DNA from: Escherichia phage Av-05 | Sequence record: KM190144 | Direction: 5' to 3' (one strand) | Length of the DNA stretch: 64,000 nt | Shown here: positions 6,351 to 27,513 of the stretch, in pieces | Layout: every line of letters starts with the position of its first letter | How positions within the stretch are numbered: position 1 is the stretch's first letter | Position numbers and translations under genes: made by a program | Notes under the pieces: model-generated | The model's input: only the letters and a program-made list of their open reading frames with translations | Databases searched by the model: none | What the model was told of the DNA's origin: nothing

Positions 6351-6661
6351 GTATTCATATAATTAACAATATCTTTTACGGCTCTCTTTCCGTCTAGTGG
6401 ATAAACTATGTCATCGCTCATCCCACCGTGTTTTAGCATTGCTACCAGTCTAGTATATACCTCTTTTGGTCTTTTGCAAGTTCTTTTCTTCCATTTATGA
6501 CCGTCTGGGGAGTACTCCTTATCTTCAAGAGAGATATGAAGTATATCCCCTATAAACTCTTTAGCCTGTGTGCTGTAAAGTGGACGGTGGAATATGTAGA
6601 ATTTCATTGCTTGCTCCTTTGTTGTAATAACAATATCAGTGCAAGCCACCTGTGTCAACAC
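6335..6661 (-). CDS. Hypothetical protein
   Basis: ORF in track; overlaps cca start (coupled). Confidence 0.4.
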   Translation of the reverse strand: MLTQVACTDIVITTKEQAMKFYIFHRPLYSTQAKEFIGDILHISLEDKEYSPDGHKWKKRTCKRPKEVYTRLVAMLKHGGMSDDIVYPLDGKRAVKDIVNYMNTWAKK

Positions 6662-9762: not shown

Positions 9763-11013
9763 ATGACAGCAACAACAGGTGTTGGTGGTTTAATTTATGG
9801 TCGTGCATTGGTTGATCAGAGGACAGGAAAGAAAATAAATTTTGATGAACTGGGCGGCGGGAATATTCCAGAAGACATAACAGATCTTATTGCATCTAAA
9901 GCCCCAATAGAAAGCCCTTCATTTACAGGAAACCCCCAAGCACCAACACCGTTGGATGATGCTATTGGAAAGGAAATAGCTAATGTAGAATATGTGAGGG
10001 GTTTAATTGCAAAATTGGCTGACTCAGCGCCTGAAACATTAGATACTCTCAATGAATTAGCGAAGGCATTAGGTGATGACCCTAACTTTGCGACAACCAT
10101 AACTAACGCTCTTGCTGGTAAACAACCATTGAGTGAAATACTGACATCTTTGTCAGGATTGATTACTGCCGGAAATAAACTAGCTTATTTCAGTGACAAA
10201 AACGTAATGGCTTTGGCAAATCTCTCCGCTGTTGGTCGAGTTATTATAGGGCAAGACTCAAAAACTGGGGTTCTTGATTATCTGGGGATAAAAACCGCCG
10301 CTACAAAAGATGTACAAAACGATATCTATGATGCCACCGATGGGGTAGTATCTTTGCCTGGTGCATTTGGTTTTGGGGCGTTTATCCCTGCCGAGAAAGA
10401 AGTTGTTTTTCAAGAGAAGAATGGGCCAGAGGAATGGGTTTCTTGGTTGAGAAGTGCACAACCTGGTCGTTACCTTGTTCGCCAAGATTTACCTTCAGGT
10501 GGTATACGTATTATTGAAGGGATCACATTTAGAGGTATGGTTGAGGTATTGTCCCTATTTCCAGCGGAGAGTGCGGAACAGGCATCTAAAAATAACAAAT
10601 ATGCTTATTTTTATGGTATAAATGGGGAGTTATACTCTTATCGCTTACTGACTATTTTTGCCAGTGGTGACTGGGTGAATATAAAAGGACAATTCTCTTC
10701 TTTACAGTCTACGGTAGACAATTCATGGGGGAGTCCTGATGTTGGAGGAATAATGTTAGGAGTGTATCTTGGCGCTTCGGACACTGATTCAAACAGAAAA
10801 CTTGTTCGTGGTCAGACTATCCCAGGATCCCGCATAGGGTGTATAACTCTTTACAGCAATGTTTCCGCAACAGGTGCATATCAAAGTACACCAGTTTCTG
10901 TTACACACAGTAATGAAACACAGAGAGGCACGTTTGTAGCCTTATCTGGCTCACCAAGCAACAGCGGTGGTACAGCCACAGGTTACATAGGTCTTTTTAT
11001 GAGGATTGCATAA
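9763..11013 (+). CDS. Tail fibre protein
   Basis: SPSFTGNPQAPTP tail-fibre anchor motif; AAGGAG RBS; N-terminus MTATTGVGGLIYGRALVD. Confidence 0.6.
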   Translation: MTATTGVGGLIYGRALVDQRTGKKINFDELGGGNIPEDITDLIASKAPIESPSFTGNPQAPTPLDDAIGKEIANVEYVRGLIAKLADSAPETLDTLNELAKALGDDPNFATTITNALAGKQPLSEILTSLSGLITAGNKLAYFSDKNVMALANLSAVGRVIIGQDSKTGVLDYLGIKTAATKDVQNDIYDATDGVVSLPGAFGFGAFIPAEKEVVFQEKNGPEEWVSWLRSAQPGRYLVRQDLPSGGIRIIEGITFRGMVEVLSLFPAESAEQASKNNKYAYFYGINGELYSYRLLTIFASGDWVNIKGQFSSLQSTVDNSWGSPDVGGIMLGVYLGASDTDSNRKLVRGQTIPGSRIGCITLYSNVSATGAYQSTPVSVTHSNETQRGTFVALSGSPSNSGGTATGYIGLFMRIA

Positions 11014-11582
11014 TGCTGGATATTAAAGATATTAAGTCCCCGCAGTATCTTCTTAATGGTGACGTTGATTGCCTCGTCCTTTTTGAGGGTTTCTCTGATT
11101 ATCTCCCATACACCGCTTCCAGTAACGACTGTAGCGAAACAGGAAAGGCAGTTTGGGATTCCTTACAATCTGGTAATTTTGGGGAGATTGCCCCGTATGT
11201 AGTAAACCCTCAATTTATCGAGGCATTAAAGCAACAGATGTTATCAGAAATAAAAGAGTGGAGAAAACTGGAAGAAAGCTCTACGGCTATTGTTTCTTAT
11301 AATGGTGCAAGGTATGATGTTGATAATGCAACCCTTGGTCGTATTTATCCAGTATTATTAGCACAAAAAGCATCCCCAGCCAGACAAGCTGTGGTTTGGA
11401 GAGATGTTGATAACAAACCTGTAGAGATGAGTAGCTCTGAATTTGAAAATCTTGTTGTAGCTATGTCTTCCGAGTTGGCAACTAAGAATGATTCAATATA
11501 CATCAAGCAACGAGAAATGAAAGATCAAGTGCTTTCAGCCTCTACGATTGAGGAATTACAAAGGATAAAAATTGGGTGGTAG
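11013..11582 (+). CDS. Putative tail fibre assembly/accessory protein
   Basis: Start overlaps fibre stop (ATGA); position between fibre genes. Confidence 0.3.
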   Translation: MLDIKDIKSPQYLLNGDVDCLVLFEGFSDYLPYTASSNDCSETGKAVWDSLQSGNFGEIAPYVVNPQFIEALKQQMLSEIKEWRKLEESSTAIVSYNGARYDVDNATLGRIYPVLLAQKASPARQAVVWRDVDNKPVEMSSSEFENLVVAMSSELATKNDSIYIKQREMKDQVLSASTIEELQRIKIGW

Positions 11583-13222
11583 CTATGGATTATAAGGATA
11601 AAGTTGTCAATGCTGAAGTCATACTTCCAGATGGGCATAGTATTGGAGGATCAGGACTCCCAAGCCAATCTTTTAAATTATACACAGAAGACACCGCGAC
11701 CATAAAACTTTCAGGTAATGGTGAAAAAGCAACACCACTTAAAGGTGTTGTTGTGGTGGCAGAAGATGAAAATAATGCTCTCCAAGCTGGAGATAATGGG
11801 TTAGCTGTTAAGGTGAGTCCTGCTGCAAATAACCTGCTGGAGTTGAAGCAAGGAGCATTATATGTAACAGCACCAGAGATAAATATTCCAATTTCTCCTA
11901 AAGAAGGAAACGCTTTAACAAATATAACCTCTGAAGGGGAAGAGGGGTTGTATGTTGCGCCTACCAAAGTGCAAGGATGGCTTTATGATTCTGCACCTGG
12001 TGTTGCAGCTTTGCCTGGCGCTTTCGGCTACGGAATGACAGATCCTGGAGCAATTTCACTTATTGCTAACAGTCTTGGCGATGTTGCACGTTCTGCCCAT
12101 AACCTACACCCAGGAAGGTATTATACTTTCACCACACGATCTGAGGAAATGACCGGAATAACAGAAATTATCTGGTTGGATAATGGCTGGGGCAACAAAA
12201 CCAGTCAGACAGCAACAAAGCTGGTTCTGTTTTTTGGAAAAGACGGTCGTATGAAGTATACAATCCGTGGCGACAATCTAAGCGATCCGGCAGTGTGGTA
12301 TGATTTGTTAACTACTAAGCAAACAGATATCTATGATCGTACAGAAGGTGTTGTCGCCATACCTGGCATGTTTGGATTCGGTAGTGATTTCGTCGGTATT
12401 GATACTGTCTATTTTAACAACAAAGCGGAGTTCCTTACTTGGGTGCATAATACTCGTTCTGGTCGTTATCTGGTGAGCCAGATATATGGTAGCGAGCCTA
12501 TCATTAACAGCAATGTTACGTTTAGCGGTATTCTTGAGGTTATCCCAACTGGTAGTGTTGGCGTTGGTTACGAGGAGAATTTACCTAACGTATGGAAAAA
12601 CCTTATTTTTTACGGCGCTAATTACGGCGATATCTGGTACACACGTTTTACCACACAACCGAATAACTTGTCTGGTTGGAGGTGCTTAGATAAGACAACG
12701 GATATAATCAATTTGCAGAACTCGCTTAATAGAAAAGCTCCATTGTACAACCCTAATTTCTCTGGTACACCAACAGTACCTACACCAAGCGATTCAGCAT
12801 CAGGAACCCAGATTGCCAACGTAGATTTTGTTAAAAAACAGGTATCTAATAACACTTACACACTGTCTGCTGGCACGGTTACTGTTTTAGATAGTGGATC
12901 ACAACCTACTATTGAGATAACTGGTCAATCACCATCACAGGTTTTAAATTTGGGAATACCAAAAGCACCTGATGGACAAACAATAAAATCTGTCAATGCT
13001 GTTGTTAAAGAAATAGACAGCGCACAACAGGTTACACTAACTTTTACAATGACAGATGATTCAAGTCAACAGGCGAGCTTTAATATCCCGTTTTCTCCTC
13101 AGCCGACTATGAAGCTGTCAGCAACATCTGGGAATTTCTCTTTCAATTATGGCGATACACCTTCAGCGGAAAAACGCAGCGGGAAGATCTGGGTCTTCTA
13201 TATATTTGAAAACAACAGTTGA
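11576..13222 (+). CDS. Tail fibre protein, N-terminal part (frame-shifted relative to 13149-13553)
   Basis: PNFSGTPTVPTPSDSASGTQIANVDFV fibre motif; stop at 13220 inside overlap with next frame. Confidence 0.55.
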   Translation: MVAMDYKDKVVNAEVILPDGHSIGGSGLPSQSFKLYTEDTATIKLSGNGEKATPLKGVVVVAEDENNALQAGDNGLAVKVSPAANNLLELKQGALYVTAPEINIPISPKEGNALTNITSEGEEGLYVAPTKVQGWLYDSAPGVAALPGAFGYGMTDPGAISLIANSLGDVARSAHNLHPGRYYTFTTRSEEMTGITEIIWLDNGWGNKTSQTATKLVLFFGKDGRMKYTIRGDNLSDPAVWYDLLTTKQTDIYDRTEGVVAIPGMFGFGSDFVGIDTVYFNNKAEFLTWVHNTRSGRYLVSQIYGSEPIINSNVTFSGILEVIPTGSVGVGYEENLPNVWKNLIFYGANYGDIWYTRFTTQPNNLSGWRCLDKTTDIINLQNSLNRKAPLYNPNFSGTPTVPTPSDSASGTQIANVDFVKKQVSNNTYTLSAGTVTVLDSGSQPTIEITGQSPSQVLNLGIPKAPDGQTIKSVNAVVKEIDSAQQVTLTFTMTDDSSQQASFNIPFSPQPTMKLSATSGNFSFNYGDTPSAEKRSGKIWVFYIFENNS

Positions 13223-13553
13223 TCTGAACAGAGCACCTGCTGGCAGTACAGATGTTATGGTGGATGTTCGTTTGACAGAGATACCTTGTACGGAAGACGG
13301 TACGTATCTTGATTATGATATCTATGCAGAATACCCAAGTGTTGTCGGGTCAGGGCAACCCACAGTGGCTGTATGGCTTATTCTGCCAACAGTTCCCACG
13401 CATACCATTGATCCCAAGACGAAGATAATAACTAAACTTCTTCGCGGAGACGGTGGCTTATCAGGACTTAATGGAGTCATTCCTATTGCAGGTGCAGACG
13501 AACAAGTCCACGAGTTTAAATATTTCTTGCAATATTCTTATCTAAACAACTAA
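13149..13553 (+). CDS. Tail fibre C-terminal part (+1 frame continuation, no RBS)
   Basis: No Shine-Dalgarno before ATG 13149; frame is +1 to upstream ORF; A5 run at 13170-13174 in overlap. Confidence 0.4.
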   Translation: MAIHLQRKNAAGRSGSSIYLKTTVDLNRAPAGSTDVMVDVRLTEIPCTEDGTYLDYDIYAEYPSVVGSGQPTVAVWLILPTVPTHTIDPKTKIITKLLRGDGGLSGLNGVIPIAGADEQVHEFKYFLQYSYLNN

Positions 13554-13563
13554 GGGGATAATT

Positions 13564-13821
13564 ATGGCAACAACAGGTGTGGCTGGTAAAGTATATGCAT
13601 CAAGCCTTGTTGATATTAAGACAGGTAAATCTGTTAAAGTTGGAGATATAGTTGCTGGAGGATCCGGTGGCTATGTTCTTCCAGAAGCGACAACATCTAC
13701 ATTAGGAGGTGTAAAGAAAGCAGAGTCCCAATCTGATTCTGTAGCCTCTGAGGTAGCTCAATTAGTAACAGATTTTAATGCTCTGCTTTCCAAGTTAAAA
13801 GCCGCTGGCATCATGGCGTAA
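13564..13821 (+). CDS. Small protein with tail-fibre-like N-terminal module
   Basis: MATTGVAGKVYASSLVDIKTGK parallels N-terminus of fibre 9763-11013; AAGGGGA RBS; followed by terminator. Confidence 0.5.
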   Translation: MATTGVAGKVYASSLVDIKTGKSVKVGDIVAGGSGGYVLPEATTSTLGGVKKAESQSDSVASEVAQLVTDFNALLSKLKAAGIMA

Positions 13822-13825
13822 TATA

Positions 13826-13850
13826 AAGACCCTTCGGGGTCTTTTATTTT
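13826..13850. terminator. Bidirectional Rho-independent terminator between convergent genes
   Basis: GACCC-TTCG-GGGTC hairpin (13828-13841) flanked by A-run and TTTTATTTT. Confidence 0.6.
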
Positions 13851-14248
13851 AGGAAGCTCTGTACTCTTTTGTCCAAATTTGCATTAATATACGGCTCACG
13901 CCCATTTTTGTAGAAAGTACAAATATATTTTCCTGTGTAGGATTGTTTTCCTGAGATAATTGCGACATCATCAAAATATTGATATGCTTCTGCTTGCTCT
14001 GCAATTCTGCCTTCAAAACCTGATGACACAACAATAACGTCCGGTTTAAATGCTTCTCTGAATCTTTTATCGCAAGATAATTGCACAATACGGCTGATCG
14101 CCTCATCTTTTTCTTCTGGCGATAACCAACTTGCCTCGACAGATTTGTAATCGTCAAGATCTGGGTTGTTTTTTATATAGCTGGTAATACCCGCACCAAC
14201 AAGAGCACAAGCACATACTGCAAGCGTAACTTTCAAAATACTTTTCAT
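13844..14248 (-). CDS. Secreted protein / candidate lipoprotein (signal peptide)
   Basis: AAGGAG RBS 6 nt before ATG 14248; MKSILKVTLAVCACALVGAG signal-like N-terminus with Cys near end of h-region; inverted inside tail module. Confidence 0.5.
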   Translation of the reverse strand: MKSILKVTLAVCACALVGAGITSYIKNNPDLDDYKSVEASWLSPEEKDEAISRIVQLSCDKRFREAFKPDVIVVSSGFEGRIAEQAEAYQYFDDVAIISGKQSYTGKYICTFYKNGREPYINANLDKRVQSFLK

Positions 14249-14273
14249 AATATTCTCCTTAGTTGCTAAGGAC

Positions 14274-14302
14274 ATTTTACACATAAGGGTTTTTCGTGTC
14301 AA
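14274..14302 (-). promoter_or_regulatory. Sigma70-like promoter for 13844-14248
   Basis: On minus strand: TTGACA (14297-14302), 17-nt spacer, TAAAAT (14274-14279), about 25 nt upstream of ATG. Confidence 0.5.
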
Positions 14303-14311
14303 GTGTTTTTA

Positions 14312-14340
14312 ATGACAAAAATTGTATTTTGTGATAATAT
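14312..14340 (+). promoter_or_regulatory. Sigma70-like promoter (extended -10) for plus-strand genes from 14375
   Basis: ATGACA (14312-14317), 17-nt spacer, TGaTAATAT (14332-14340); GGAGAG RBS at 14365. Confidence 0.45.
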
Positions 14341-14374
14341 AGTTACTAACAAGTAACATAAAATGGAGAGTTAG

Positions 14375-14893
14375 ATGACAGACCAAGAAATTGTTGATTA
14401 CATCAGGCTCCTGCTTGGGTCAATATCCCCAGAGGCACTACCTGATGAAGTTATCACGGCATTCCTTGAGATGGAGAAAAAAAGAGCAAACTGGCCTAAT
14501 CCGTCATCCACACCGTGTGACATGTGGAGAGTAGTTTATAACACAATGGTAGCTGTATTAAGATGGTTAATTCTTCAAGAGATAAATTCTGGGGAAGCAT
14601 CTATCACAGAAAGACTGGAAAAGATAGGTGATGAGACGATACAGGTAAAAGGGGGATCTTCCTATCAGAACTGGAAAGATTTTCTGGACTGGTTGTTACA
14701 AAACCCTGATTACGTCAATAGCTGCCTGAATGGTGTCTCTGGTTTGGTTATTGTTGGTGGTGTGCGACAGGATGAGTTTTGGCGTGTTAAGAGTAATCCT
14801 AACTCAAGAAGCCCGTTTGATGTTTCCGGTATAGTTCCTCAAACAGGAGTTCCCGGTATTCCTCGGAGATACCCAAAACACAGGTATTGTTGA
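14375..14893 (+). CDS. Hypothetical structural protein (tail/neck module)
   Basis: ORF in track, 172 aa, upstream of sheath gene. Confidence 0.4.
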   Translation: MTDQEIVDYIRLLLGSISPEALPDEVITAFLEMEKKRANWPNPSSTPCDMWRVVYNTMVAVLRWLILQEINSGEASITERLEKIGDETIQVKGGSSYQNWKDFLDWLLQNPDYVNSCLNGVSGLVIVGGVRQDEFWRVKSNPNSRSPFDVSGIVPQTGVPGIPRRYPKHRYC

Positions 14894-14958
14894 CAATCGC
14901 ATTCCTAATTATTGATTTTGCTTGGATAATGTGGTAAAATACCTTAACGGGAGTTCTT

Positions 14959-15435
14959 ATGAGAACAAAATTTAAATCTCATCAAGATTTAAGTGCTGTG
15001 GAGAATTTTTATAATTCTGTACAGCAACTTGATAAAAAACAAGTCTCTTATGGTTATTATGATGATCCACACTATTCAGGACTGAATACTGCAACTCTGG
15101 CAGCTATCCATGAACAAGGCTGGAATAATCTTCCAGCCCGTACATTCATAACTAGCGCGGCTGTATCCTTTCAAAAGGATTTGGAGAAATTACAGAAGGA
15201 GTTATTCGGCACGTTAGCATCTGGAAGTAATAATCCAACCCCGATGCTGAAAAAAATTGGTAAAGCAGGTGCTGAAAAAATTAAGTTTGTGATAGACTCT
15301 GGGCTTTTCCCTCATAATACTGTATCAGATGCATGGGCAGATGTCAAAGGTTTTAGTGCGGCTATGTATCATTATGGGGATTTAAGAGATTCCACGACTT
15401 ATAAAATTTCGAACAGAAGAGGTTCAGGGGCGTAA
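14959..15435 (+). CDS. Hypothetical structural protein
   Basis: ORF in track, 158 aa. Confidence 0.4.
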   Translation: MRTKFKSHQDLSAVENFYNSVQQLDKKQVSYGYYDDPHYSGLNTATLAAIHEQGWNNLPARTFITSAAVSFQKDLEKLQKELFGTLASGSNNPTPMLKKIGKAGAEKIKFVIDSGLFPHNTVSDAWADVKGFSAAMYHYGDLRDSTTYKISNRRGSGA

Positions 15436-15438
15436 ATT

Positions 15439-15873
15439 ATGGCGGGATACAAACTTATAGGCAAGAACAAATTGATACCCAGAGTTACCATGAAAGGTAG
15501 ACACAGGCAGTTCAAAAAGACAGACTTAGATAACCCATTTGAAAATGGTGGGTTGGATATTGAGTATGTTGAATTTGATGTACCTGAATGTGTCGTTCAA
15601 CCTATTAGTGGTAAAGCGGCGAGAGATTACACATCTCAATTAGTTCCTGAAGGTGGTAGGCAGTATGATTCCTTTACTGTGTATTCATCTGTGATGTTGA
15701 AAGGTCCAGTTGAAGGATCTGATAACATGGCTGATCAGATCCTATTAATGAACTCTCGTGGTGAGATGGAGTGGTTCACAGTTATTAAATCTGATTTGTA
15801 TCAGACCACAGGTGTCTCTAGGTTCAGAGCTTATGTGGTGGCAATACCAGAAGGAACAAACGGGGGTATTTAA
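15439..15873 (+). CDS. Hypothetical structural protein
   Basis: ORF in track, 144 aa. Confidence 0.4.
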   Translation: MAGYKLIGKNKLIPRVTMKGRHRQFKKTDLDNPFENGGLDIEYVEFDVPECVVQPISGKAARDYTSQLVPEGGRQYDSFTVYSSVMLKGPVEGSDNMADQILLMNSRGEMEWFTVIKSDLYQTTGVSRFRAYVVAIPEGTNGGI

Positions 15874-16403
15874 TGGCTGATTTTATCAGTACAGATGAGA
15901 TCTTCGATGCCTTGACGAAAACAATAGGTTCTTTTTGTAAAGAGGTTACTGGTCGAAAAGTCGTGCTGGCAGGGGAAGATGAAATACCTAAAGTTGATGG
16001 TGAGTTTATTTTGGTGGATCTTACTGCGGTAGATCAGCTTGACTGGCAATCTGATGATGGATTTACTGATGATGGTCGAGCGATGACAGTCCATAACTAC
16101 GAGGTGGTATATACATTGACTGCTTATCGCGGTAAAGCACCAAATGCCCTAAGTCGTATTTTACAGGCTATGAACTTACCTTTTATATACGATAAGTATT
16201 TCCCAACTAATTCCCCTTTTGCGTATTCCTCTTCTTCAACAATATCTCGGTTAAGAGTTCCTTTGAATGTTCAAAAATATGAAACTCGTGCTGTCGTGTT
16301 GCTAACATTCAATGTTTGCTTTGCAGAAACAGACACTGGAGTTTTCGAAGATTTGGAAACCCTCAATGCGCAACTTTCATATCATTTTCCGAAAGAGGAT
16401 TAA
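15873..16403 (+). CDS. Hypothetical structural protein (possible tail completion/terminator)
   Basis: ORF in track, ATGA overlap with previous gene. Confidence 0.4.
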   Translation: MADFISTDEIFDALTKTIGSFCKEVTGRKVVLAGEDEIPKVDGEFILVDLTAVDQLDWQSDDGFTDDGRAMTVHNYEVVYTLTAYRGKAPNALSRILQAMNLPFIYDKYFPTNSPFAYSSSSTISRLRVPLNVQKYETRAVVLLTFNVCFAETDTGVFEDLETLNAQLSYHFPKED

Positions 16404-16527
16404 AAGAAATATTTTGGTTATTGATAAGCACTGGCTTATTAGTGATCGTAAAGGGCTTTTTGCCCAAAGTACAGCACAAATAAGTGCTGGTCAATAACTG
16501 TACGTACAGAAATAAAAGAGGAAATCG

Positions 16528-17940
16528 ATGGCTTATAATGACAAGGTGGTTGATGTAACAGTCACACTTGGTACTCAACCAATCGACACAAAAGGGTTTG
16601 AAACCCCACTGTTCCTTGCGATCCATAATGTCTTCCCAGAAAGAGTTCGTGCTTATACCGAACTTAGTCAGTTAGTTGATGATGGATTTGCTGTTGGAAC
16701 ACCTGCATACAATTATGCATCTAAGGCATTTTCTGGAACATTCCGTCCACAATATCTGATGATTGGTCGTCAAGGCTTCACCAACACCGTTGTGGATTTT
16801 ACAGGACAAACTAACACAGATCCAGAGACACCTGTTGCATTGAATTTTGTTTCCGGTGCTTACCAGAAAAGCATTATTGTTAACGTTTCAGCTTCCTCTG
16901 AAGCAAATGCGATAGCTACATCTCTGGCAGCTGCGATTAATGCAGACACAACCCTGCAAACAGTACTTACTGCGACAGCAAGTGAAGCCAAAGTAACAAT
17001 TGCTCCAAAAGATGATGGTAAGTTTAGTGTTGGTAAGGACAGTGGCAACATGGTCATCACCAATACCTCTGATGAAACAGTTTCTTCTGTTCTCCCACAG
17101 GTTATGACTGCCAATGAAAACTGGTATTTCGTCAGTACTGAATCCCACACTAAGACATCTATTTTGAGTGCTGCTGCCTTTGCTGCTGCAAATTACAAGA
17201 TGCATGTTTACTCAACTGCTGACGAAAAATCTAAAACTGCCGATACCGATTCTATTGCAGATCAACTCAAAGCATTGCAATACGACACATCTATCGGTAT
17301 GTATGATCCTTTGGCAGACAGTGAGTATCCCGAGGGTGGGATTATCGGAGCGATGGCTTCGAATGACCCTTCCTATGGGGATTCTATCCACCTGAAAACT
17401 ATGGATGGGGTCATTGCTCCAACCTTAAGCGCAACGGAACGTATGACTATCTGGGGTAAGAATCTGAACTTCTACCGCATGATTAATGGTGTGGGATCCT
17501 TCTATGAAGGCAAATGTGCTTCCGGCAATTATGTAGATGTTGTGAGATTTGGTCACTGGCTTAAGTTCCGCACCGAAGAAAGTGTTTTCGGATATATGTC
17601 CCGCAGATCCAACATGGGGCTGTCTGTTAAAATGAGTGATGATGACCTCCCTAACCTGAAGTCTGTCATCATGAATAACCCTATCAACGTAGGTATTTCT
17701 AACGGAGCTATTTTAACAGGTTATGATGAGGTTAACAAGGTCTTCTTCGATCCTGTAATCACAATCCCTCTGCGTGGAAGCATACCCACTAACGATCTGG
17801 CAGCACGTACACTTAACAACGTGAAAGTGGAACTAGTGTACAACACACCACTACATTTTGTCAAGATCCGTATGACTGTCATGCTGGACAAAACAGGTTC
17901 AAATTCTGGCAACGCACAGACAGTAACAGCAGGAGTGTAA
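16528..17940 (+). CDS. Tail sheath protein (putative)
   Basis: 470 aa acidic protein directly upstream of a 157-aa tube-sized gene, chaperones and tape measure; AAGAGG RBS. Confidence 0.5.
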   Translation: MAYNDKVVDVTVTLGTQPIDTKGFETPLFLAIHNVFPERVRAYTELSQLVDDGFAVGTPAYNYASKAFSGTFRPQYLMIGRQGFTNTVVDFTGQTNTDPETPVALNFVSGAYQKSIIVNVSASSEANAIATSLAAAINADTTLQTVLTATASEAKVTIAPKDDGKFSVGKDSGNMVITNTSDETVSSVLPQVMTANENWYFVSTESHTKTSILSAAAFAAANYKMHVYSTADEKSKTADTDSIADQLKALQYDTSIGMYDPLADSEYPEGGIIGAMASNDPSYGDSIHLKTMDGVIAPTLSATERMTIWGKNLNFYRMINGVGSFYEGKCASGNYVDVVRFGHWLKFRTEESVFGYMSRRSNMGLSVKMSDDDLPNLKSVIMNNPINVGISNGAILTGYDEVNKVFFDPVITIPLRGSIPTNDLAARTLNNVKVELVYNTPLHFVKIRMTVMLDKTGSNSGNAQTVTAGV

Positions 17941-17943
17941 TAA

Positions 17944-18417
17944 ATGAATACAGCTATTCTAACGCCGTATGCATATGACCCTAAAAAAGTAAAACTGTAT
18001 CTGATGACTCAAAGAGTAACAGGATTCGCAGCGGACACGAAAATTGTGGTGTCCCGTAATGAAGACAATATCATTCCCCACATGGGGGTTGATGGTGAGC
18101 TATCTGCTGCACTGTCCCGTAACCAATCTGGTGTTATGACGGTTTCTCTTCAGAATACAGCATCATGGAATGGTAATTTAGCAAACTGGCAAAAACAAGC
18201 ATCCGTAACTGGTCTTATTTTCTTCCCTGTTCTTCTGGAAGGTTCTCAAGGTATGGGTTTGAGTACAATTGGATGGATTCAGAAGCAGCCTGACCTTACT
18301 TACGGAACGGAAGTTGGTCAAATGGACTGGGAAATTGGTATTCTGGATGCTTGGTTGAGTCCTGATACTCTGTCCTCTGTTGGCTTCGGCCTCGCTGGAC
18401 TTTCCGGTATCGTTTAA
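17944..18417 (+). CDS. Tail tube protein (putative)
   Basis: 157 aa, follows sheath gene by 3 nt. Confidence 0.5.
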   Translation: MNTAILTPYAYDPKKVKLYLMTQRVTGFAADTKIVVSRNEDNIIPHMGVDGELSAALSRNQSGVMTVSLQNTASWNGNLANWQKQASVTGLIFFPVLLEGSQGMGLSTIGWIQKQPDLTYGTEVGQMDWEIGILDAWLSPDTLSSVGFGLAGLSGIV

Positions 18418-18426
18418 TAATTTCGT

Positions 18427-18960
18427 GTGCCACATGGATGTGGCCTTTATACACGTAAGGATAATTCAACTTTTAAAGACGCAGGAGCGTGCATGAAAAT
18501 TAGACAAACAACTGAAATTGACCTCGCAGGTCACAACTTTGTTATCACACATTGGTCTCCAACAAAAGCATTTAAAAATATTCCTAAGATAGGACGTTAT
18601 ATTGCTGTTCCAATGGCATCCATCTCTGGGGCACTTATGTCTGGTGGGCAGAATCTTTCTGATGCTATCCCAACAGCAGTATTATACCTGTTTGACCAGA
18701 TGGAGCAAGATAATATTGAAGAACTTTTTGCCTTAATTCTGGACGATGTATCTGTTGATGGTATGGCAGGTAAGGTAGACATTGATGATATTTTCCAAGG
18801 GAAGATGATGGACCTTATCAAACTCGTGGCAAAAGTGCTGGAGGTTAATTACGGCTGTTTTTTCACGAAAGACGGTTTCGCAAGCCTTCAGGATCTTCTG
18901 GGACGCCTGGGTCAGACCCATCAACTGAACACGATGGATCAGGCAGAGGAAGCGGAGTAA
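18427..18960 (+). CDS. Tail assembly chaperone (putative)
   Basis: 177 aa acidic protein between tube and tape measure. Confidence 0.4.
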   Translation: MPHGCGLYTRKDNSTFKDAGACMKIRQTTEIDLAGHNFVITHWSPTKAFKNIPKIGRYIAVPMASISGALMSGGQNLSDAIPTAVLYLFDQMEQDNIEELFALILDDVSVDGMAGKVDIDDIFQGKMMDLIKLVAKVLEVNYGCFFTKDGFASLQDLLGRLGQTHQLNTMDQAEEAE

Positions 18961-18995
18961 CACCGTCCAATATTTCGAAAGTTGTCCTGAGAGCT

Positions 18996-19238
18996 ATGAA
19001 TTATGCAAGAAAAAATAGCTCATTGACTTGGTTCGATTATTTGTGGTGTCGTGCTCTGAAGAGTTTTAAAGGTGAGTCTTATTCCTCACTTGAGTCTGCT
19101 GACATGGCCTACCTGCTTAAACTGAACGAATATCTTGATATTGAAGAGTTTATCCAAGACGTACAGGAGAGAGAGGAACAAAGTGCAGCCAATGCTGCCG
19201 CCGCTGCAAATAGGTCGCGCCGAGGTAGAAGAGGTTAA
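18996..19238 (+). CDS. Small tail assembly protein (putative)
   Basis: 80 aa, immediately upstream of tape measure. Confidence 0.35.
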   Translation: MNYARKNSSLTWFDYLWCRALKSFKGESYSSLESADMAYLLKLNEYLDIEEFIQDVQEREEQSAANAAAAANRSRRGRRG

Positions 19239-19243
19239 TCTCA

Positions 19244-19278
19244 AGCCAGGTTCCTTCTCGGAACCTGGCTTTTTTATT
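19244..19278 (+). terminator. Rho-independent terminator
   Basis: AGCCAGGTTCC-TTCTC-GGAACCTGGCT 11-bp perfect stem then TTTTTTATT. Confidence 0.65.
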
Positions 19279-19289
19279 GAGGAAAATCT

Positions 19290-21671
19290 ATGGCGAATAT
19301 CATAGTAACTAAAACCGTAAATACTGTCGAGTGGTCTGTAGATCGCACCAGTTACGGTCGTGCAATGAAAGCTATAAAATCCCTGAAGAAGGAATGGGAA
19401 AAGACTAACAGAGCTTTCACTTCTAATAAAAGTAATCCGGCAGCAATTTATAAACGTTCTGCACAAGAGGCTCGTCTTGTAGCTAAAAGATTACACCAAA
19501 CTGAACGTGCAGAGCAAGCAAAATCTACGGCACATGCTATTGCAATGGCAAAAAAGGAAGCTCGTGCTCGTGAACAAATAGCTAAAGTTGAGAGCGCGAG
19601 AAGAAAGCAAGCAGTAGCCAGACTAACAAACAGAAGAACACCCGAAGAACAAAAAGAATATAATGCATTAAAATCAAAGTTGAAGCAGATGGAAAAAACA
19701 GGTTCTGGGTATGGGACAAATCCAGAAATATCTGCTGCCCGTCAAGCAAGATTGCAGCAAGAACTTGCAGCAAGGAAGTCTTCAGGATCTGCCTCTGGTA
19801 TTGTTGGGGATCCTAATAGTCGCCACGACCCAAGTCTTGTGGCTGCTCAGAACTCTGCTATGGAACGCTATCATAAATCTATCCCGAAAGAAAAAACAGC
19901 GGATGAGATTAAGGCAGAAAAAGATGCTAATAAGAAGAAAGAAAGAGAAGCGTTAAGAGCAGAAAGAATAAAGGCTGCAAAACAATCAACGATTGCTAAT
20001 GCTGCTGTAAGACTTCGTGCTAAGTATGGTGATGATTTCAGATCTAAAATTAAAGGTTATGATGATCTGGAAAAGAGATTTATGCAAAGCCAGACTATGA
20101 GAGCTTCTAATTTCCGTGCTGAATTGGCAGCAATGGAAACAGGACTCCGCAAAGCTAAGGCAAATACACTATCTCTTGATCAAGGATTGAAGAACCTTCG
20201 TAGCACATTAATTAGTGTTTCTGCTGCATACGGGGCTTTTAATGCTGCCGCAAGTGTTGTGAAAACAGGGCAATTCTTTCAAGGCATGGAAGCTACCATG
20301 TTAATGGTTTCTGATGACTCAGAAGAAGCTGCGAAAAGAATGCAGTTTGTTCGGGAGCAATCTTACAGATTGGGTTTGGATTTAAAAACCGCCGCTCAAG
20401 GTTATACCCAAATGGCTATCTCTGCTAACGGTGTTTTGAGCAAGGCGCAAAATGACGAACTGTTCAAAGGCCTCTCAGAATATGCTACTGCACTTCAGGT
20501 TGATCCTGTAAAATACCAGCGTGGTATCACTGCTATCCAACAAATGATGGGTAAAGGTCAGATCATGGCTGAGGAGTTAAAATCACAACTTTCCGAAGGT
20601 ATTCCAGGTTCTCTTAATGTATTCCTTAAAGCCACACAAGAAGCATTCAATGATTCATCTATAGACATTGCAAAATTAATGGATATGATGAAGAATGGAG
20701 AGCTAAAGGCTTCAAAAATTCTTCCTTTGGTTGCTAAGTATTATGCCGAGGCCGCAAGAAAAGGTGGTGCACTTACCAAGGCACAACAAAGCAACCGTGT
20801 TGCTATGCAGCGTTTACAACAAACGTGGATGAACTTTCAGAATCAAATATTTGAAAGTGGTTTTGGTGAAGCCTTGACAGACACGTTTAACAATCTGGCA
20901 AAAGCCTTGGATAGTAATGGGGAATTGGCACGTAACATAGGACAGATAACAAAAGGTTTTGTTGAAGGCTTTATGTGGGTATTCTACCAAATATATAATA
21001 TCTTTATAGATATTGACGGGATTTTGCAGAGATATATCCCAATTTTCAGAAGAAATGGTGATGAATTAGGGAAGGCTTGGGAATGGACAGGAATGGCTAT
21101 AGGAGCTTTGTTCTTCGCCACTTCGCTAGGTAGAGTTTTCACTATCTTATCTAAAATCGCAGGACTTTCGAAGTCTCTCAAATTTTTGAAAACACTTGGT
21201 GGTGGGGTAGCTACGCCAACCGCTCCAAGCAAAGGCCCGTGGGGGGGAGGTGGATCTGGAAAAGGATCATTTCCGTTTTTCTTAAATCCCTATGCTGCTG
21301 CAACAGTTTGGGGTTTGGATTATGCGGTCTCCACTGATAGTGAGAAAGATGATAAAAAGCGGCAGCTTGGTAATGCCTATTCCTATGGTAGTGGTGACTT
21401 CATGGCTGTGGTTGGAGGGATGTTAACAAACTGGTGGTCATCCCTGTGGGCTGGGCATATGCAGGATAAAGCTAACTATCTCCAATCCCATAATCTAATG
21501 CCTGGTGGTTCGACGGGTCAAACTGTAGCCCCTATGGTCATTCCTACCGAGCCTGTCAGTGGTGAAATAACCATTAAAATAGATGCTGGTGAATTACGCA
21601 ATATGATTGATCAGCAAATAGAGACAGCCAATATGGATAACATTAATCTTATTCTCGCTGTCCCTCAATAA
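19290..21671 (+). CDS. Tail tape measure protein
   Basis: 793 aa, long A/K/E/R-rich coiled-coil N-half, hydrophobic and Gly-rich segments (GGGVATPTAPSKGPWGGGGSGKG). Confidence 0.7.
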   Translation: MANIIVTKTVNTVEWSVDRTSYGRAMKAIKSLKKEWEKTNRAFTSNKSNPAAIYKRSAQEARLVAKRLHQTERAEQAKSTAHAIAMAKKEARAREQIAKVESARRKQAVARLTNRRTPEEQKEYNALKSKLKQMEKTGSGYGTNPEISAARQARLQQELAARKSSGSASGIVGDPNSRHDPSLVAAQNSAMERYHKSIPKEKTADEIKAEKDANKKKEREALRAERIKAAKQSTIANAAVRLRAKYGDDFRSKIKGYDDLEKRFMQSQTMRASNFRAELAAMETGLRKAKANTLSLDQGLKNLRSTLISVSAAYGAFNAAASVVKTGQFFQGMEATMLMVSDDSEEAAKRMQFVREQSYRLGLDLKTAAQGYTQMAISANGVLSKAQNDELFKGLSEYATALQVDPVKYQRGITAIQQMMGKGQIMAEELKSQLSEGIPGSLNVFLKATQEAFNDSSIDIAKLMDMMKNGELKASKILPLVAKYYAEAARKGGALTKAQQSNRVAMQRLQQTWMNFQNQIFESGFGEALTDTFNNLAKALDSNGELARNIGQITKGFVEGFMWVFYQIYNIFIDIDGILQRYIPIFRRNGDELGKAWEWTGMAIGALFFATSLGRVFTILSKIAGLSKSLKFLKTLGGGVATPTAPSKGPWGGGGSGKGSFPFFLNPYAAATVWGLDYAVSTDSEKDDKKRQLGNAYSYGSGDFMAVVGGMLTNWWSSLWAGHMQDKANYLQSHNLMPGGSTGQTVAPMVIPTEPVSGEITIKIDAGELRNMIDQQIETANMDNINLILAVPQ

Positions 21672-21675
21672 TTTG

Positions 21676-21700
21676 AAGGGGCTTTTGCCCCTTTTATTGT
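21676..21700 (+). terminator. Rho-independent terminator
   Basis: AAGGGGC-TTTT-GCCCCTT hairpin followed by TTATTGTTTT. Confidence 0.55.
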
Positions 21701-21751
21701 TTTAATAAAAGATTTATGATAAAATCATACAAGAACAAGTGAGGGTTTTTC

Positions 21752-22624
21752 ATGGCTTCAGTTTCTAATAACCAGTCAAAACCACAGCAAGGGAAGGCCA
21801 CGGCAAATGTTGAAAGAAAAGTAAACAATGCGCAGGATACAAGTGCTGGCGTTAAGTATACACTTTTTGCTAGTGGTCTTAATTATGGTGGTCGTAATAT
21901 TGAGTTAAAAGACAAAAATTATACAGATGATCTGGCAATAATTTTCGATGTTGTCGAGGAACACACCTATACAAGAGAAGTGGATAAAACATCTTACGCA
22001 GTTGAAGATAGGGTTAAATTCAGCGACCACGGTGTAATAAAAGATGGGAAATTCTCTTTTAGCGCAAGGGTTAGCTCATCACCACTCTCAATTATTCAGT
22101 TTAACTACATAGATAAAGATACTGATAATAAAAACCCTGCTGCATCAAAAAGACCAGAAAAAGCCCTAGAGATTCTTGAACGTCTTATAGACCAACGACA
22201 AATTGTAACTCTTGTGACAGAGGATAGAATCTTAGATAATTACATCCTCACTTCAATGGAAGCATCACGTAGTAATTCTGATGGTGCGGCATTAGTTTTT
22301 CAATTAGAGTTTACAGAGTTCCGTACATTTACATTGGGAAAGACCATCTTAGCCACCATCTATACAGACGCTAAAAAAACAGGAAAGACAAAGCAAAAAG
22401 GGGCTGTTCAATCTTCGGCTAACCAAGAAGAGTTAGATGTTACAGCTATGAGAACACGGTATATAGGGCCGGATGCTGAGAACAGGCAGAAAATGGCAGA
22501 CGCGAGAGGGTATGGCAATTTTACGAAACATGACACCAAAGTTGGCACATTATCTCCAGATGGGAAATTAAGAGATTTAGAAGGTAATATCACAGATTAT
22601 GATAGCCTAGTGGGGAAAAATTAA
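21752..22624 (+). CDS. Baseplate/tail protein (putative)
   Basis: 290 aa, first gene after tape measure. Confidence 0.35.
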   Translation: MASVSNNQSKPQQGKATANVERKVNNAQDTSAGVKYTLFASGLNYGGRNIELKDKNYTDDLAIIFDVVEEHTYTREVDKTSYAVEDRVKFSDHGVIKDGKFSFSARVSSSPLSIIQFNYIDKDTDNKNPAASKRPEKALEILERLIDQRQIVTLVTEDRILDNYILTSMEASRSNSDGAALVFQLEFTEFRTFTLGKTILATIYTDAKKTGKTKQKGAVQSSANQEELDVTAMRTRYIGPDAENRQKMADARGYGNFTKHDTKVGTLSPDGKLRDLEGNITDYDSLVGKN

Positions 22625-22971
22625 TGAAAGTTACATTTTCGTGGGATATTGATGGATTTGCCGACCAAACAATGAGAGTCGTTTTGGACAGCAGGACTTA
22701 TGAAATGAGATTCCAATGGAATGAGAGAGATGAATCTTGGTTGGTATATTTTGGGGATGTTGGTTCAGAACCTACGGTGTCCTTCAAATTAACAACAATA
22801 TTCGATATACTGGAACCTTTTAAGTATATGGAAAACATTCCTAATGGTGTTTTGAGTGTTTGGTCATTCAGTTCATCTACAAAACGTGTTGGAAGGTACA
22901 ATATCGGATTTCTTGCAGATCTCCAACTTCTTTATTCATCTCCTGATGAGGAGTTAACAGGTGAGGAGTAA
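22624..22971 (+). CDS. Baseplate assembly protein (putative)
   Basis: 115 aa, ATGA-coupled to previous gene. Confidence 0.35.
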   Translation: MKVTFSWDIDGFADQTMRVVLDSRTYEMRFQWNERDESWLVYFGDVGSEPTVSFKLTTIFDILEPFKYMENIPNGVLSVWSFSSSTKRVGRYNIGFLADLQLLYSSPDEELTGEE

Positions 22972-22976
22972 TAATT

Positions 22977-23975
22977 ATGCCATCTTACAGAACAAGAACA
23001 TATAAACTAACAATAGGCAAACCAGTATATATCGGAGAAAAGCCTACAAATATTTCCGATTATACAAATAAAAACAGTAAAGATGCTTATGTTGTAAGTA
23101 ATGAGTACGGTTCTGCAAATATAGAATTTGAAGTTAAAAAAGATAACTCGAAAGACCCCAACAAAGGTTACGTAACAATTTACAATTTGAGTGATGAAAC
23201 AGTTAGCTATTTAGATGCTAACCAGAGAGAATCTATAGCCATAGTGTTGGAGGCTGGGTTTGATGGTGAAAACCAAATGTTATTCTCTGGGACAGTAGAG
23301 TTTGTTCAGGATAAATGGGATGGAAATACCCGCCAAACAAAGATGATCCTTGGTGATGCAACCACAAATATTATGACTGCTAAAACAGCAAGATCATATA
23401 AAAAAGGAACACCTTTAGATACTGTTCTTAATGATTTGATTTCCGATTTAAAATTACCTATCGGAAAAGTTGTTAAATTCGGGAATAGGACTCTTCAACA
23501 ATCAATGGCATTCACAGGGAATGCTGCTAATAATCTTGAGAGATTAGCCAGAAATACAGGTTCCACATTTAGTGTCCAGGATGGCGCTGTGTACTGGACA
23601 ACACAAGGTAAAAGATTTAAGAACGCTGTTTTTGAAATAAGCGCAGAATCTGGGATGCATGATTCTCCAACCCCACAGAATCCAGAACCTGCTAAAAGAA
23701 GACTTGAGAAAGAAAGCAAAAAGAAAAAAAGGAAACCTAAACCTGGCACGGATACAAGACCAAGTAGAGCAAGAATAAAAGAAGACGCTGGGTTGGTTGT
23801 AACCACAGAGCTTAATGGGGCAATTATTCCTGAGAGCACAATTTATTTGAAGAGTCATAAATATACAGGTTTCTATAAAGTAGTATATTTGACACACAAA
23901 GGGCAACTTGAAGGTGGAGATTGGATTTCCGAAATTGGCCTTGCTGAAGCCCGTGGTGGTGTTGTGGAGGAATAA
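22977..23975 (+). CDS. Baseplate hub protein (putative, gpD/late-control-D-like)
   Basis: 332 aa, position upstream of spike; internal Lys-rich linker. Confidence 0.35.
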   Translation: MPSYRTRTYKLTIGKPVYIGEKPTNISDYTNKNSKDAYVVSNEYGSANIEFEVKKDNSKDPNKGYVTIYNLSDETVSYLDANQRESIAIVLEAGFDGENQMLFSGTVEFVQDKWDGNTRQTKMILGDATTNIMTAKTARSYKKGTPLDTVLNDLISDLKLPIGKVVKFGNRTLQQSMAFTGNAANNLERLARNTGSTFSVQDGAVYWTTQGKRFKNAVFEISAESGMHDSPTPQNPEPAKRRLEKESKKKKRKPKPGTDTRPSRARIKEDAGLVVTTELNGAIIPESTIYLKSHKYTGFYKVVYLTHKGQLEGGDWISEIGLAEARGGVVEE

Positions 23976-24676
23976 TGGCAGCAATTCAAAGAATGGACGC
24001 AGCATTGAATCAGTGGTTTGCGAGACAAGCCAGAGACATCCATACAGGATTAAGGGCGAAGGTTGTTGAGGTTGATTATAGCATACCCTCAGCAACTGTA
24101 CAACCTTTAGCATCCACCAATTTCGATGACGGAACAGTAGATGCATATCCTGCTGTTTTCGATGTGCCGCTTTCGATGCCAAGCGCAAACGGCGGTAAGG
24201 CAAGACTTACATTGCCTGTTAAACCCGGTGATATTGTCGGGTTATCTTTTTCAGAGAGAAATGAGTCAGATGCTAATGACTTAACGACACACGGTTTATT
24301 TCCTGGGTGGTCAATCATTGGTGTTCACAGTGATGGGAATGCAATGGTTATCGACCCAAACAATGTGGAATTATGGAACGATCAAGTTCATTTCTCTCTT
24401 GCCCCTGAAGGAGATTTTGTATTAAAAGGCCCAGTGGGAACATTTACTGTTGATAAAGATGGCAAAATGTCTTTTACCAACGGGTCTGCGACATTGACAG
24501 CGAAGCCTGATGGGAATATAGAGATGAATGGGGCGAAGGTGACACCAGATGGGAATATTGTGACAGCTAGAGGTGTGAATTTAAATGATTTCTACGACTG
24601 GTTTGCAAGGCACACACACCACTATGTTTGGACAGACCCATCTGGTGAAAGTGACACAAATGTCCCTAACAAATAA
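23975..24676 (+). CDS. Baseplate central spike (putative)
   Basis: 233 aa; C-terminal HTHHY (HxH-like tip motif). Confidence 0.4.
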   Translation: MAAIQRMDAALNQWFARQARDIHTGLRAKVVEVDYSIPSATVQPLASTNFDDGTVDAYPAVFDVPLSMPSANGGKARLTLPVKPGDIVGLSFSERNESDANDLTTHGLFPGWSIIGVHSDGNAMVIDPNNVELWNDQVHFSLAPEGDFVLKGPVGTFTVDKDGKMSFTNGSATLTAKPDGNIEMNGAKVTPDGNIVTARGVNLNDFYDWFARHTHHYVWTDPSGESDTNVPNK

Positions 24677-24685
24677 GGAGTCTAA

Positions 24686-25213
24686 ATGGCAACTCTCTAT
24701 TCTGATTTATTAATGGATCCTGTTACTGGGGATCTCGATGTCTCAGAAGGTCTTAAACTGATAGAATCAAACCAAGTTAGTCTTCGTCAACGTTTATGGC
24801 TAAGGTTTAATGTCTGGCAAGGAGACTGGTATTTCGATGAGACATTCGGATTCCCATATCGAACATATATTAGCAAGAAGGTTATGAAGACTGTACTTGA
24901 TAATAAGATAAAAGAGGTGACGAGGCAGGAACCGGACGTTTTGGAAATAACTTATTTTCATTCCACAATGGATTCAGGAACAAGAAGCTATCAAGCATAT
25001 TTTGAAGTGACAACCAAAGAACAAGAGGTTGTTAGGATTGCCTTTATAGGGCAGGATGAGTATTATTATCCAGAAGCTGATGCAGGGACAACAATCCTTT
25101 GCGATGATGATGGCTGGATACTTTGGGCTAACAAACTCTATTATCTCATCAATTTCCGTTTGCCTCGTACAGGCGACGCAACTTGGTGGAATAAGTGGGC
25201 AACTAATGAATAA
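24686..25213 (+). CDS. gp25-like baseplate wedge protein
   Basis: VSLRQRLWLRFNVWQGDWYFDETFGFPY resembles GPW/gp25 core. Confidence 0.45.
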   Translation: MATLYSDLLMDPVTGDLDVSEGLKLIESNQVSLRQRLWLRFNVWQGDWYFDETFGFPYRTYISKKVMKTVLDNKIKEVTRQEPDVLEITYFHSTMDSGTRSYQAYFEVTTKEQEVVRIAFIGQDEYYYPEADAGTTILCDDDGWILWANKLYYLINFRLPRTGDATWWNKWATNE

Positions 25214-25216
25214 TGG

Positions 25217-25245
25217 AAAGGGGCATAAGCCCCTTTATTTGTGTT
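25217..25245 (+). terminator. Rho-independent terminator
   Basis: AGGGGC-ATAA-GCCCCT hairpin then TTATTTGTGTTT. Confidence 0.5.
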
Positions 25246-25318
25246 TACTATTTATAATTAAGACATATTGTGGTAAAATAACCACATCTTATAATAATTT
25301 ACAAGAGGAGGCATAATC

Positions 25319-25633
25319 GTGGCTGCTCAATTTGGATTAAATGACTACGGTTTTTCAATTCCGTCCCTTGATGACTTGATAACAGATACCAAGCAATCCC
25401 TTATTAGAGCTTTTGGTGAAAACTTTAACACCCAAACTAACTCCGTTGTTGATAAGATCACTACTATTTTCAACGAAAGGGAATATCAATTAATTCTTTT
25501 GGCTGCATCTATTTATGCAGCACAAACGTTAGCAGGGGCAGAAGGTATATATCTTGACGAGATTCTTGGTCGTCGTGGGATATTCCGTAGAGGAAAAACC
25601 AAAGGGTCCGGTACTGGTTCAAATGGTAATTAA
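25319..25633 (+). CDS. Baseplate J-like protein, N-terminal part (frame-shifted)
   Basis: N-terminus of baseplate J-type protein; stop at 25631 inside overlap with next frame. Confidence 0.45.
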   Translation: MAAQFGLNDYGFSIPSLDDLITDTKQSLIRAFGENFNTQTNSVVDKITTIFNEREYQLILLAASIYAAQTLAGAEGIYLDEILGRRGIFRRGKTKGSGTGSNGN

Positions 25634-26813: not shown

Positions 26814-26823
26814 GGATGTTATT

Positions 26824-27501
26824 ATGGCAGACTATTTAAAAGATGTAAATCATATACACACACTGCCAGATTTCGTTGAGGGAGGTATTGACTATCTCCC
26901 TGGTGATTTTCTGAAAGAGAAAAAGAATCTTGTAAAATTTCTGACAATATACCTTGAAAGATTGAAAGCTGTTGATGAGATGCTTGTAAAGCTATCAGAA
27001 GGTAGATTATTAAGGAATGCCGCAGGGCTGAATCTTGATGAGATAGGTAATCAGGTTGGTATTGAGAGAAACGGGCTTGATGATGCCACCTATAGGGCAA
27101 TAATAATGATCTTGGCTGCTGGATCTGCAAGACACGGTACAAGACCAGAGTTTATTGAAACATTAAATCAACTGTTTGGTGTTGGAAATTTTACAACTTA
27201 CAAAGGGGATAATTACCGTTTTGACGTAAACGTATCGAAAAGCTGTTTCGACTTAGCAGCAGCGATAGATGAGATACTTGACCTATTACCGTTACCAACG
27301 CATCTTAGACTAACAGAGTCTGTGGGTTTGGCGTTTGGTTTTAAGAATGACAAACATGCACTTGGATTCGGATCTGTGACAGAGAAATCAAGAACTGGTG
27401 ATGGTGGTTTAGCCCATCTAGTTTACGTACCGGATCCACCAAGAACATCGGATGACATCCTTATTTATGTTGACAATATTTCTGTAGATGCTACAGAGTA
27501 G
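26824..27501 (+). CDS. Baseplate wedge protein (putative, tail-protein-I-like position)
   Basis: 225 aa directly after J-like gene. Confidence 0.35.
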   Translation: MADYLKDVNHIHTLPDFVEGGIDYLPGDFLKEKKNLVKFLTIYLERLKAVDEMLVKLSEGRLLRNAAGLNLDEIGNQVGIERNGLDDATYRAIIMILAAGSARHGTRPEFIETLNQLFGVGNFTTYKGDNYRFDVNVSKSCFDLAAAIDEILDLLPLPTHLRLTESVGLAFGFKNDKHALGFGSVTEKSRTGDGGLAHLVYVPDPPRTSDDILIYVDNISVDATE

Positions 27502-27513
27502 AGGAGACCACAT

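Follow-up and report, generated by a model that had tools for sequence, protein, structure and literature searches.

Escherichia phage Av-05 (sequence record KM190144), a member of the Vequintavirinae, carries a gene that points against the plus-strand tail genes around it. In the 64,000-nucleotide stretch of Av-05 DNA that was analyzed (the window, to which all coordinates refer), this inverted gene occupies 405 nucleotides of the minus strand. Its 134-amino-acid product is 100% identical to the entry 'membrane protein [Escherichia phage Av-05]' and falls in the family entry PHROG 11434. The features of the locus are:

13844..14248, minus strand: the inverted gene, encoding a 134-amino-acid protein predicted to be membrane-anchored or secreted (ATG 14248..14246, stop codon 13846..13844).

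14255..14260, minus strand: ribosome-binding site AAGGAG, 6 nucleotides 5' of the ATG; GGAG/GAGG is kept in relatives.

14274..14302, minus strand: sigma70-type promoter of the inverted gene (-35 TTGACA 14302..14297, 17-nucleotide spacer, -10 TAAAAT 14279..14274), with a predicted start near 14267.

14303..14311: A-rich block of 9 base pairs, TAAAAACAC on the minus strand, separating the two -35 hexamers and almost invariant in relatives.

14312..14340, plus strand: divergent promoter facing the neck and tail genes (-35 ATGACA 14312..14317, 17-nucleotide spacer, extended -10 TG-a-TAATAT 14332..14340), with a predicted start near 14347.

13825..13844: GC-rich hairpin AAAGACCC-TTCG-GGGTCTTT between the convergent stops at 13821 and 13844, with A and T runs at its flanks.

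13564..13821, plus strand: upstream neighbor, an 85-amino-acid protein with a match to the C-terminal portion of the phi29 head-fiber family (PF11133, 7.7e-16).

14375..14893, plus strand: downstream neighbor, a 172-amino-acid head-to-tail adaptor (PHROG 2663; a homolog carries PF26075, Phage_Adaptor_PhiTE) and the first gene of the neck/tail transcription unit that the divergent promoter faces.

A preliminary description of this DNA had singled out the inverted gene as the only minus-strand gene of the tail block and had noted its strong AAGGAG ribosome-binding site; both points hold. The remaining minus-strand open reading frames (ORFs) within 9763..36043 each overlap long plus-strand genes, and the homolog is the sole opposite-strand coding sequence annotated in the homologous 20 kilobases of phage TH18 and in 14 kilobases of PVP-SE1. 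A longer version of 152 amino acids from TTG 14302, present in the ORF list, was rejected: this TTG falls within the promoter, and all homologs begin at an MK... ATG or GTG. The nearest deposited genomes are those of the Vequintavirinae group TH18, 18-1-2, 19-1-2 and 24-2-1, with 91.6% DNA identity over 13000..15500. Between Av-05 and TH18, residues 33-113 differ by 14 synonymous and no non-synonymous codon changes, and residues 1-32 by 5 synonymous and 16 non-synonymous changes; between PVP-SE1 and KE23, there are 60 synonymous and 13 non-synonymous codon differences. Judged by these codon comparisons, the inverted gene is real, coding and under purifying selection. Divergence from TH18 is strongly mosaic along the gene: per nucleotide, it amounts to 31% over codons 1-32, 6% in the middle and 19% over the last 21 codons. 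This points to recombination at the two ends or, alternatively, to a membrane segment under very weak constraint.

The promoter of the inverted gene matches the consensus at 11 of 12 positions and is the top site of a 3-kilobase scan. Because the window holds three sites of at least 11/12 on its two strands, this one included, the score alone is unremarkable genome-wide, and it is position and conservation that carry the case. We compared the intergenic region across 10 aligned phage genomes and in two metagenomic contigs. The two -35 hexamers (TTGACA and, for the other promoter, TGTCAT) and the A-run between them are invariant, TGATAAnAT and the TA...T of the -10 are conserved, and the promoter spacer and 5' untranslated region of the inverted gene vary across the 10 genomes, with the two metagenomic loci alike. 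Most of these 12 relatives, in all of which the TTGACA is retained, also have an extended -10 (TGnTAnnnT). The divergent promoter, with a score of 9/12 and in addition the TG of an extended -10, is directed at the ATG at 14375 and is kept in relatives as ATGACA...TGATAAGAT; a motif search found nothing resembling it above chance elsewhere in the window. The near-perfect TTGACA-17-TAAAAT promoter and the second, back-to-back promoter facing the structural genes, both proposed from the Av-05 sequence, are thus conserved well beyond this phage, in a pattern of the kind expected for two functional promoters. The A-rich block may, in our view, act as a shared UP-like element.

At the other end of the gene, the hairpin fills the 22 nucleotides separating the two convergent stop codons. 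Its GGCCCCGAAGGGCC is kept 3' of every homolog, and the PVP-SE1 record annotates it as a terminator on both strands. It is likely to be a bidirectional intrinsic terminator, ending both the fiber/head-fiber transcript and that of the inverted gene. Since the shared hairpin would also end the upstream structural transcript, the neck and tail genes would need the second promoter.

Two more intergenic sigma70-type promoters were seen on the minus strand, at 37656..37684 and 6630..6658, each with a perfect TTGACA, a 17-nucleotide spacer and a ribosome-binding site and ATG close by. The first has an A-rich block upstream and the second an extended -10. They belong to the same class as the promoter of the inverted gene and probably drive minus-strand gene blocks.

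The protein was matched by tblastn in 64 phage records, from phages of Escherichia, Salmonella, Cronobacter, Enterobacter, Klebsiella, Raoultella and Proteus. Outside the TH18 group, the five annotated matches (among them PVP-SE1, 4MG, Mydo, KB57 and Ro1) are all Vequintavirinae, belonging to either Seunavirus or Mydovirus. An exhaustive profile search among 1.84 billion cluster representatives found only four clusters of the family; five more matches (P0007-P0011) were discarded as artefacts, being long proteins of repetitive sequence in which many short stretches matched. Beyond Av-05 itself, a word-indexed protein search returned a single cluster, 85% identical. By these searches, the family is a lineage-restricted ORFan, catalogued as PHROG 11434 'membrane protein'. 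The labels given to it in GenBank are inconsistent: 'adenosine deaminase' in the TH18 group, 'putative portal protein' in GEC_vB_MG and phage 19, 'endonuclease' or 'exonuclease' in some Klebsiella phages, and 'membrane protein' elsewhere. None of the four enzymatic or portal labels was backed by any profile search, and we rejected them. The TH18 'complete genome' (ON075799.1) itself looks like two concatenated contigs, because its length of 133,882 equals 79,447 + 54,435, both of them contigs of 18-1-2, and the match coordinates are identical.

In every locus fetched, the gene lies inverted between a short phi29-head-fiber-like gene and the adaptor gene; one oddly annotated locus is collinear with KB57, and the two most divergent members, known only from metagenomic assemblies, have the same arrangement. 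The invariant neighbors are thus the head-fiber-like gene of 85-130 amino acids (PF11133) and the head-tail adaptor (PF26075). Linkage to tail fibers is looser. The Av-05 genes upstream of the inverted gene match the tail-fiber families PHROG 2636 and PHROG 1141, so that its description as directly following tail fiber genes is right for Av-05, and fiber-family genes also lie upstream in PVP-SE1 and 4MG. The association is not conserved, however: in Mydovirus (Mydo, KB57 and Ro1) the order is capsid, hypothetical, head-fiber-like, inverted gene and adaptor, without fiber genes.

The late genes 27-81 of the relative rV5 have been described as a single unidirectional unit (PMC3606486). At the corresponding junction gp060, gp059, gp058 and gp057 all read in the same direction, with two unrelated same-strand genes at the site, and no inverted gene, homolog or transmembrane protein was found between gp059/gp058 and the adaptor gp057. 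Given this junction without the inverted gene, and the conservation of the gene's own promoter and hairpin, the unit behaves as an inserted moron. Morons were reportedly defined by Hendrix and colleagues in lambdoid phages, with HK97 gp15 and lambda bor and lom among them. Like these, the Av-05 unit is a single extra gene for a small envelope protein, with a sigma70 promoter immediately upstream and an intrinsic terminator abutting its stop codon, set between structural genes that are contiguous in rV5. Unlike them, it belongs to a virulent rather than a temperate phage, so that there is no expression from a prophage; it is inverted and shares a bidirectional terminator; it has no sequence similarity to them; and there is no clear anomaly in its base composition (GC 37.5% against 40.4% for the window; 29.6% at third codon positions, inside the range of the neighbors). 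HK97 gp15 is an inner-membrane superinfection-exclusion protein, as cited in PMC9902359 (ref. 16 therein).

Residues 1-27 of the protein form a hydrophobic N-terminal helix. The sequence begins MK..K and continues in an uncharged stretch, 19 residues long in Av-05, 19-22 in 10 of the 11 homologs and 16 in TH18, with a mean Kyte-Doolittle hydropathy above 2; the PVP-SE1 record reports one transmembrane domain by TMHMM/Octopus. The signal peptide of the preliminary description thus stands as an N-terminal segment for export or anchoring. The helix could serve as a type II anchor or else as a signal peptide that is subsequently removed, and the small residues near positions 18-22 could be compatible with cleavage by signal peptidase I. 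The envelope location that we propose rests on this segment, on the transmembrane call in PVP-SE1 and on two invariant cysteines, C59 and C110, in the soluble domain. These would fit an oxidizing compartment, where a C59-C110 disulfide would probably staple the domain.

The same segment bears on the earlier proposal that the gene encodes a receptor-blocking superinfection-exclusion lipoprotein of the type of T5 Llp or T1/phi80/N15 Cor, that is, a lipidated protein sorted to the outer membrane, which plugs the phage's receptor and is encoded beside the receptor-binding gene. The likeness in Av-05 is evident: a small exported protein with cysteines (C12 and C14) in its hydrophobic N-terminal segment, encoded next to fiber-family genes, with a host-type promoter that drives its transcription opposite to the structural genes. 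A regular-expression search for the lipobox [LVI][ASTVI][GAS]C, however, found none in any of the 11 homologs, and C12 and C14 are not conserved among them; by sequence, the protein is not a lipoprotein, and its hydrophobic helix of about 20 residues would hold it in the inner membrane. Nor is a receptor-specific blocker expected to occur as one family in phages of six host groups (E. coli, Salmonella, Cronobacter, Klebsiella, Proteus and Raoultella) that differ in their fibers and receptors, or in Mydovirus phages without fiber genes beside it. We therefore regard the receptor-blocking lipoprotein as extremely unlikely.

A model of the protein was built with AlphaFold2 on an alignment of eight sequences (mean predicted local distance difference test score 80.8; ten-residue blocks past residue 30 at about 85-91, with one block at 75). 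The model shows an N-terminal helix (2-27), a second, long one (44-65) and five strands in antiparallel arrangement. Residues ~33-134 are predicted to form a cystatin/NTF2-like alpha+beta domain, in which the helix packs on a 4-5-stranded antiparallel sheet as in the cystatin superfamily. Judging from the order of the strands, most of the invariant residues appear to lie at the pole by the C-terminal end of this helix, distal to the membrane tether. Foldseek searches of the PDB and BFVD gave nothing significant except a member of the family, and Pfam, NCBIfam, PADLOC and the PDB (by single sequence and by profile) gave no meaningful match; the PHROGs search returned only the family's own entry, 'membrane protein'. 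In the literature we found no transcriptomic or functional data on the inverted gene, a search that did not cover the PVP-SE1 genome/proteome paper (PMC3194984). Sequence identity to cystatin, latexin and NTF2-like proteins, including the bitopic periplasmic VirB8/DotI/TraM proteins of type IV secretion, is at most 13%. There is no Pfam match to the VirB8 family profile, and the Av-05 domain is smaller than the NTF2/VirB8 domains, with one main helix versus three or more.

Such a fold could belong to a periplasmic enzyme inhibitor, a cystatin-, latexin- or PepSY-like wedge on a periplasmic or outer-membrane protease or hydrolase of the host, shielding phage proteins or the envelope. The cystatin motifs, though, are absent from the alignment of eight homologs, both QxVxG in the first hairpin and PW in the second; the fold is common to many non-inhibitors (NTF2, VirB8, the CaMKII hub), and no target is identifiable. 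An inhibitor of this kind is improbable, and the predicted fold indicates a compact protein-binding module and little more.

The protein also evolves about twice as fast as the products of the adjacent adaptor and Neck1 genes, with 49% amino-acid identity between Av-05 and PVP-SE1 compared with 78-80% for the adaptor and Neck1. In the Klebsiella phages K54lambda1.1.1, rec2, rec4 and rec5, comparison with KB57 shows that a single-T deletion (GATGG to GA-GG) outside any homopolymer has shifted the frame of the homolog (PQ569690.1, 1780..1925), so that the last ~18 residues are truncated and replaced. As this copy occurs in a viable Klebsiella phage lineage, an intact gene is therefore unnecessary for plaque formation. 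These observations bear on the possibility that the protein is a morphogenetic helper, a membrane-anchored factor for head, neck or tail assembly that is kept where it acts. Its position between head-fiber and adaptor genes is strictly kept in every relative, and a 12-kDa 'putative membrane protein' band was listed for virions of KP12, assigned by gel size only (PMC9902359). Against this, the gene has the opposite orientation and its own host-type promoter, rV5 builds a homologous virion without it, phages with the frameshifted copy are viable, its rate of change is twice that of its structural neighbors, and the invariant cysteines and N-terminal export signal point away from the cytoplasm, the site of assembly. 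A role in morphogenesis is very unlikely.

A small domain that would lie in the periplasm behind a helix with a high content of G, A, S, T and V (as in VTLAVCACALVGAGITSY and IAGVITAIVVSGGLIY), expressed from a promoter independent of the late operon, could alternatively control the timing of lysis. The protein would then be a periplasm-facing antiholin or endolysin-control factor following the logic of T4 RI or Mu releasin, with a signal-anchor-release (SAR) helix, and the relative KP12 has been reported to have a SAR endolysin and a pinholin (PMC9902359). However, no lysis gene lies nearby in any relative, and the synteny with head and neck genes is strict; phages of the PVP-SE1 type keep the gene despite a modular, non-SAR endolysin (PMC3352856); and the protein resembles neither RI nor any lysis family. 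We consider this explanation unlikely. An i-spanin (Rz-like) assignment was rejected: a transmembrane domain is present, but the domain that follows is alpha+beta and not coiled-coil, and the gene is not part of a lysis cassette. The sole overlapping ORF that might have been its partner, at 13849..14157, has no signal or lipobox.

Taken together, the host-type promoter, the dispensability, the faster evolution and the putatively periplasm-facing binder fold point to an accessory factor acting on the envelope. The reading we prefer, tentatively and with slightly more doubt than confidence, is that the inverted gene is accessory, moron-like and specific to one lineage (Avunavirus, Seunavirus and Mydovirus), and that it encodes an envelope-acting binding protein, preferably one that excludes kin phages. 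The gene would have been inserted in reverse at the junction of the head and neck modules as an independent transcription unit. The host's RNA polymerase, unmodified, would initiate at TTGACA-17-TAAAAT and produce a transcript with a leader of ~20 nucleotides and a strong Shine-Dalgarno sequence, followed by the 405-nucleotide gene, stopping at the hairpin shared with the converging fiber operon, and from the back-to-back extended -10 promoter transcription would resume toward the adaptor, neck and tail genes. The N-terminal hydrophobic helix would place the product in the inner membrane in an N-in/C-out topology, with its cystatin/NTF2-like domain of ~100 residues exposed in the periplasm, and its most likely job would be to bind and neutralize an envelope protein of the infected cell. 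Since the family is common to phages with different fibers and hosts, the target is more plausibly a conserved one, either the machinery by which these phages themselves enter the cell or some conserved component of the envelope. In the version that we favor, possible rather than probable, related superinfecting phages would be excluded at or after penetration of the outer membrane, by analogy with Imm, Sp or gp15 and not in the fashion of Llp or Cor.

The analogy to T4 Imm and Sp lies in the setting: a virulent myovirus, a small protein whose N-terminus carries a membrane or export segment, a host-type promoter, and a site of action that for the Av-05 protein would be, if anywhere, the inner membrane or the periplasm. 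T4 Sp is all-helical and T4 Imm is an integral membrane protein. By contrast, the predicted Av-05 fold is alpha+beta and cystatin-like, with no sequence or fold homology to either and no Pfam or PDB sequence match. Several further points weigh against exclusion of kin phages. Searches of Pfam, NCBIfam, PADLOC and PDB sequences gave no homology link to any exclusion protein. An Sp-like target is not evident, because a Pfam scan of ten tail proteins found no peptidoglycan-hydrolase domain or tail-borne lysozyme. A sigma70-like promoter is no proof of early expression in this group: rV5-like phages appear to use such promoters throughout the genome (PMC3606486), so early expression of the gene can only be presumed. 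The frameshifted copy, moreover, could retain partial function.

The locus forms a neat and conserved unit of moron type with an uncharacterized protein; the preliminary observation of it is confirmed and strengthened, and the interpretation then given is partly supported. It provides a clean comparative case of a virulent phage whose structural block is divided into two transcription units by a terminator that works in both directions and a pair of divergent promoters. Being small, with a confidently predicted fold and a natural frameshift variant, the protein is an easy target for a functional test. It could also represent a new family, confined to one branch of the Vequintavirinae, of inner-membrane-tethered, cystatin-like periplasmic inhibitors of a conserved envelope step, expressed from the deeply conserved promoter pair that would also restart neck/tail transcription. 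This we find rather doubtful, and the step would be either the ejection machinery of kin phages, which would constitute a new mechanism of superinfection exclusion among virulent phages of the therapeutic type, or a host periplasmic protease or hydrolase. Phages of Seunavirus, Mydovirus and Avunavirus (PVP-SE1, the KB57-like Klebsiella phages and Av-05) are in use, or have been put forward, for biocontrol and therapy, frequently as components of cocktails. If kin exclusion is true, the exclusion factor of the first-infecting phage would affect interference among related phages of a cocktail.

Three other observations were made in the window. The fiber-family gene at 11576..13553 is split into two overlapping ORFs of 548 and 134 amino acids, corresponding to a single protein of 593 amino acids in TH18. 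By tblastn, the match runs in frame 3 up to TH18 residues ~468-473 (near 13170..13190) and continues in frame 1, and the N-terminal part is 65% identical to TH18 and the C-terminal part 96%. The Av-05 assembly was built from 36-base reads (PMC4463512), and the split could reflect a genuine frameshift or a pseudogene, or else a mistake in that assembly. Synteny with relatives ends at 9739/9740. The fiber gene is preceded by the capsid module in TH18, PVP-SE1 and others, and in the window by a minus-strand block with a CCA tRNA nucleotidyltransferase and a DNA N-6-adenine methyltransferase, which maps to another contig of phage 18-1-2; either the genome has been rearranged here or one of the assemblies contains a mis-join. 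Finally, a tail protein of 687 amino acids (27514..29574, plus strand) combines the TIM-barrel and N-terminal domains of the 'non-contractile tail sheath protein' with an N-terminal Calx-beta domain, an unusual combination for the baseplate/fiber region of a contractile-tailed phage.
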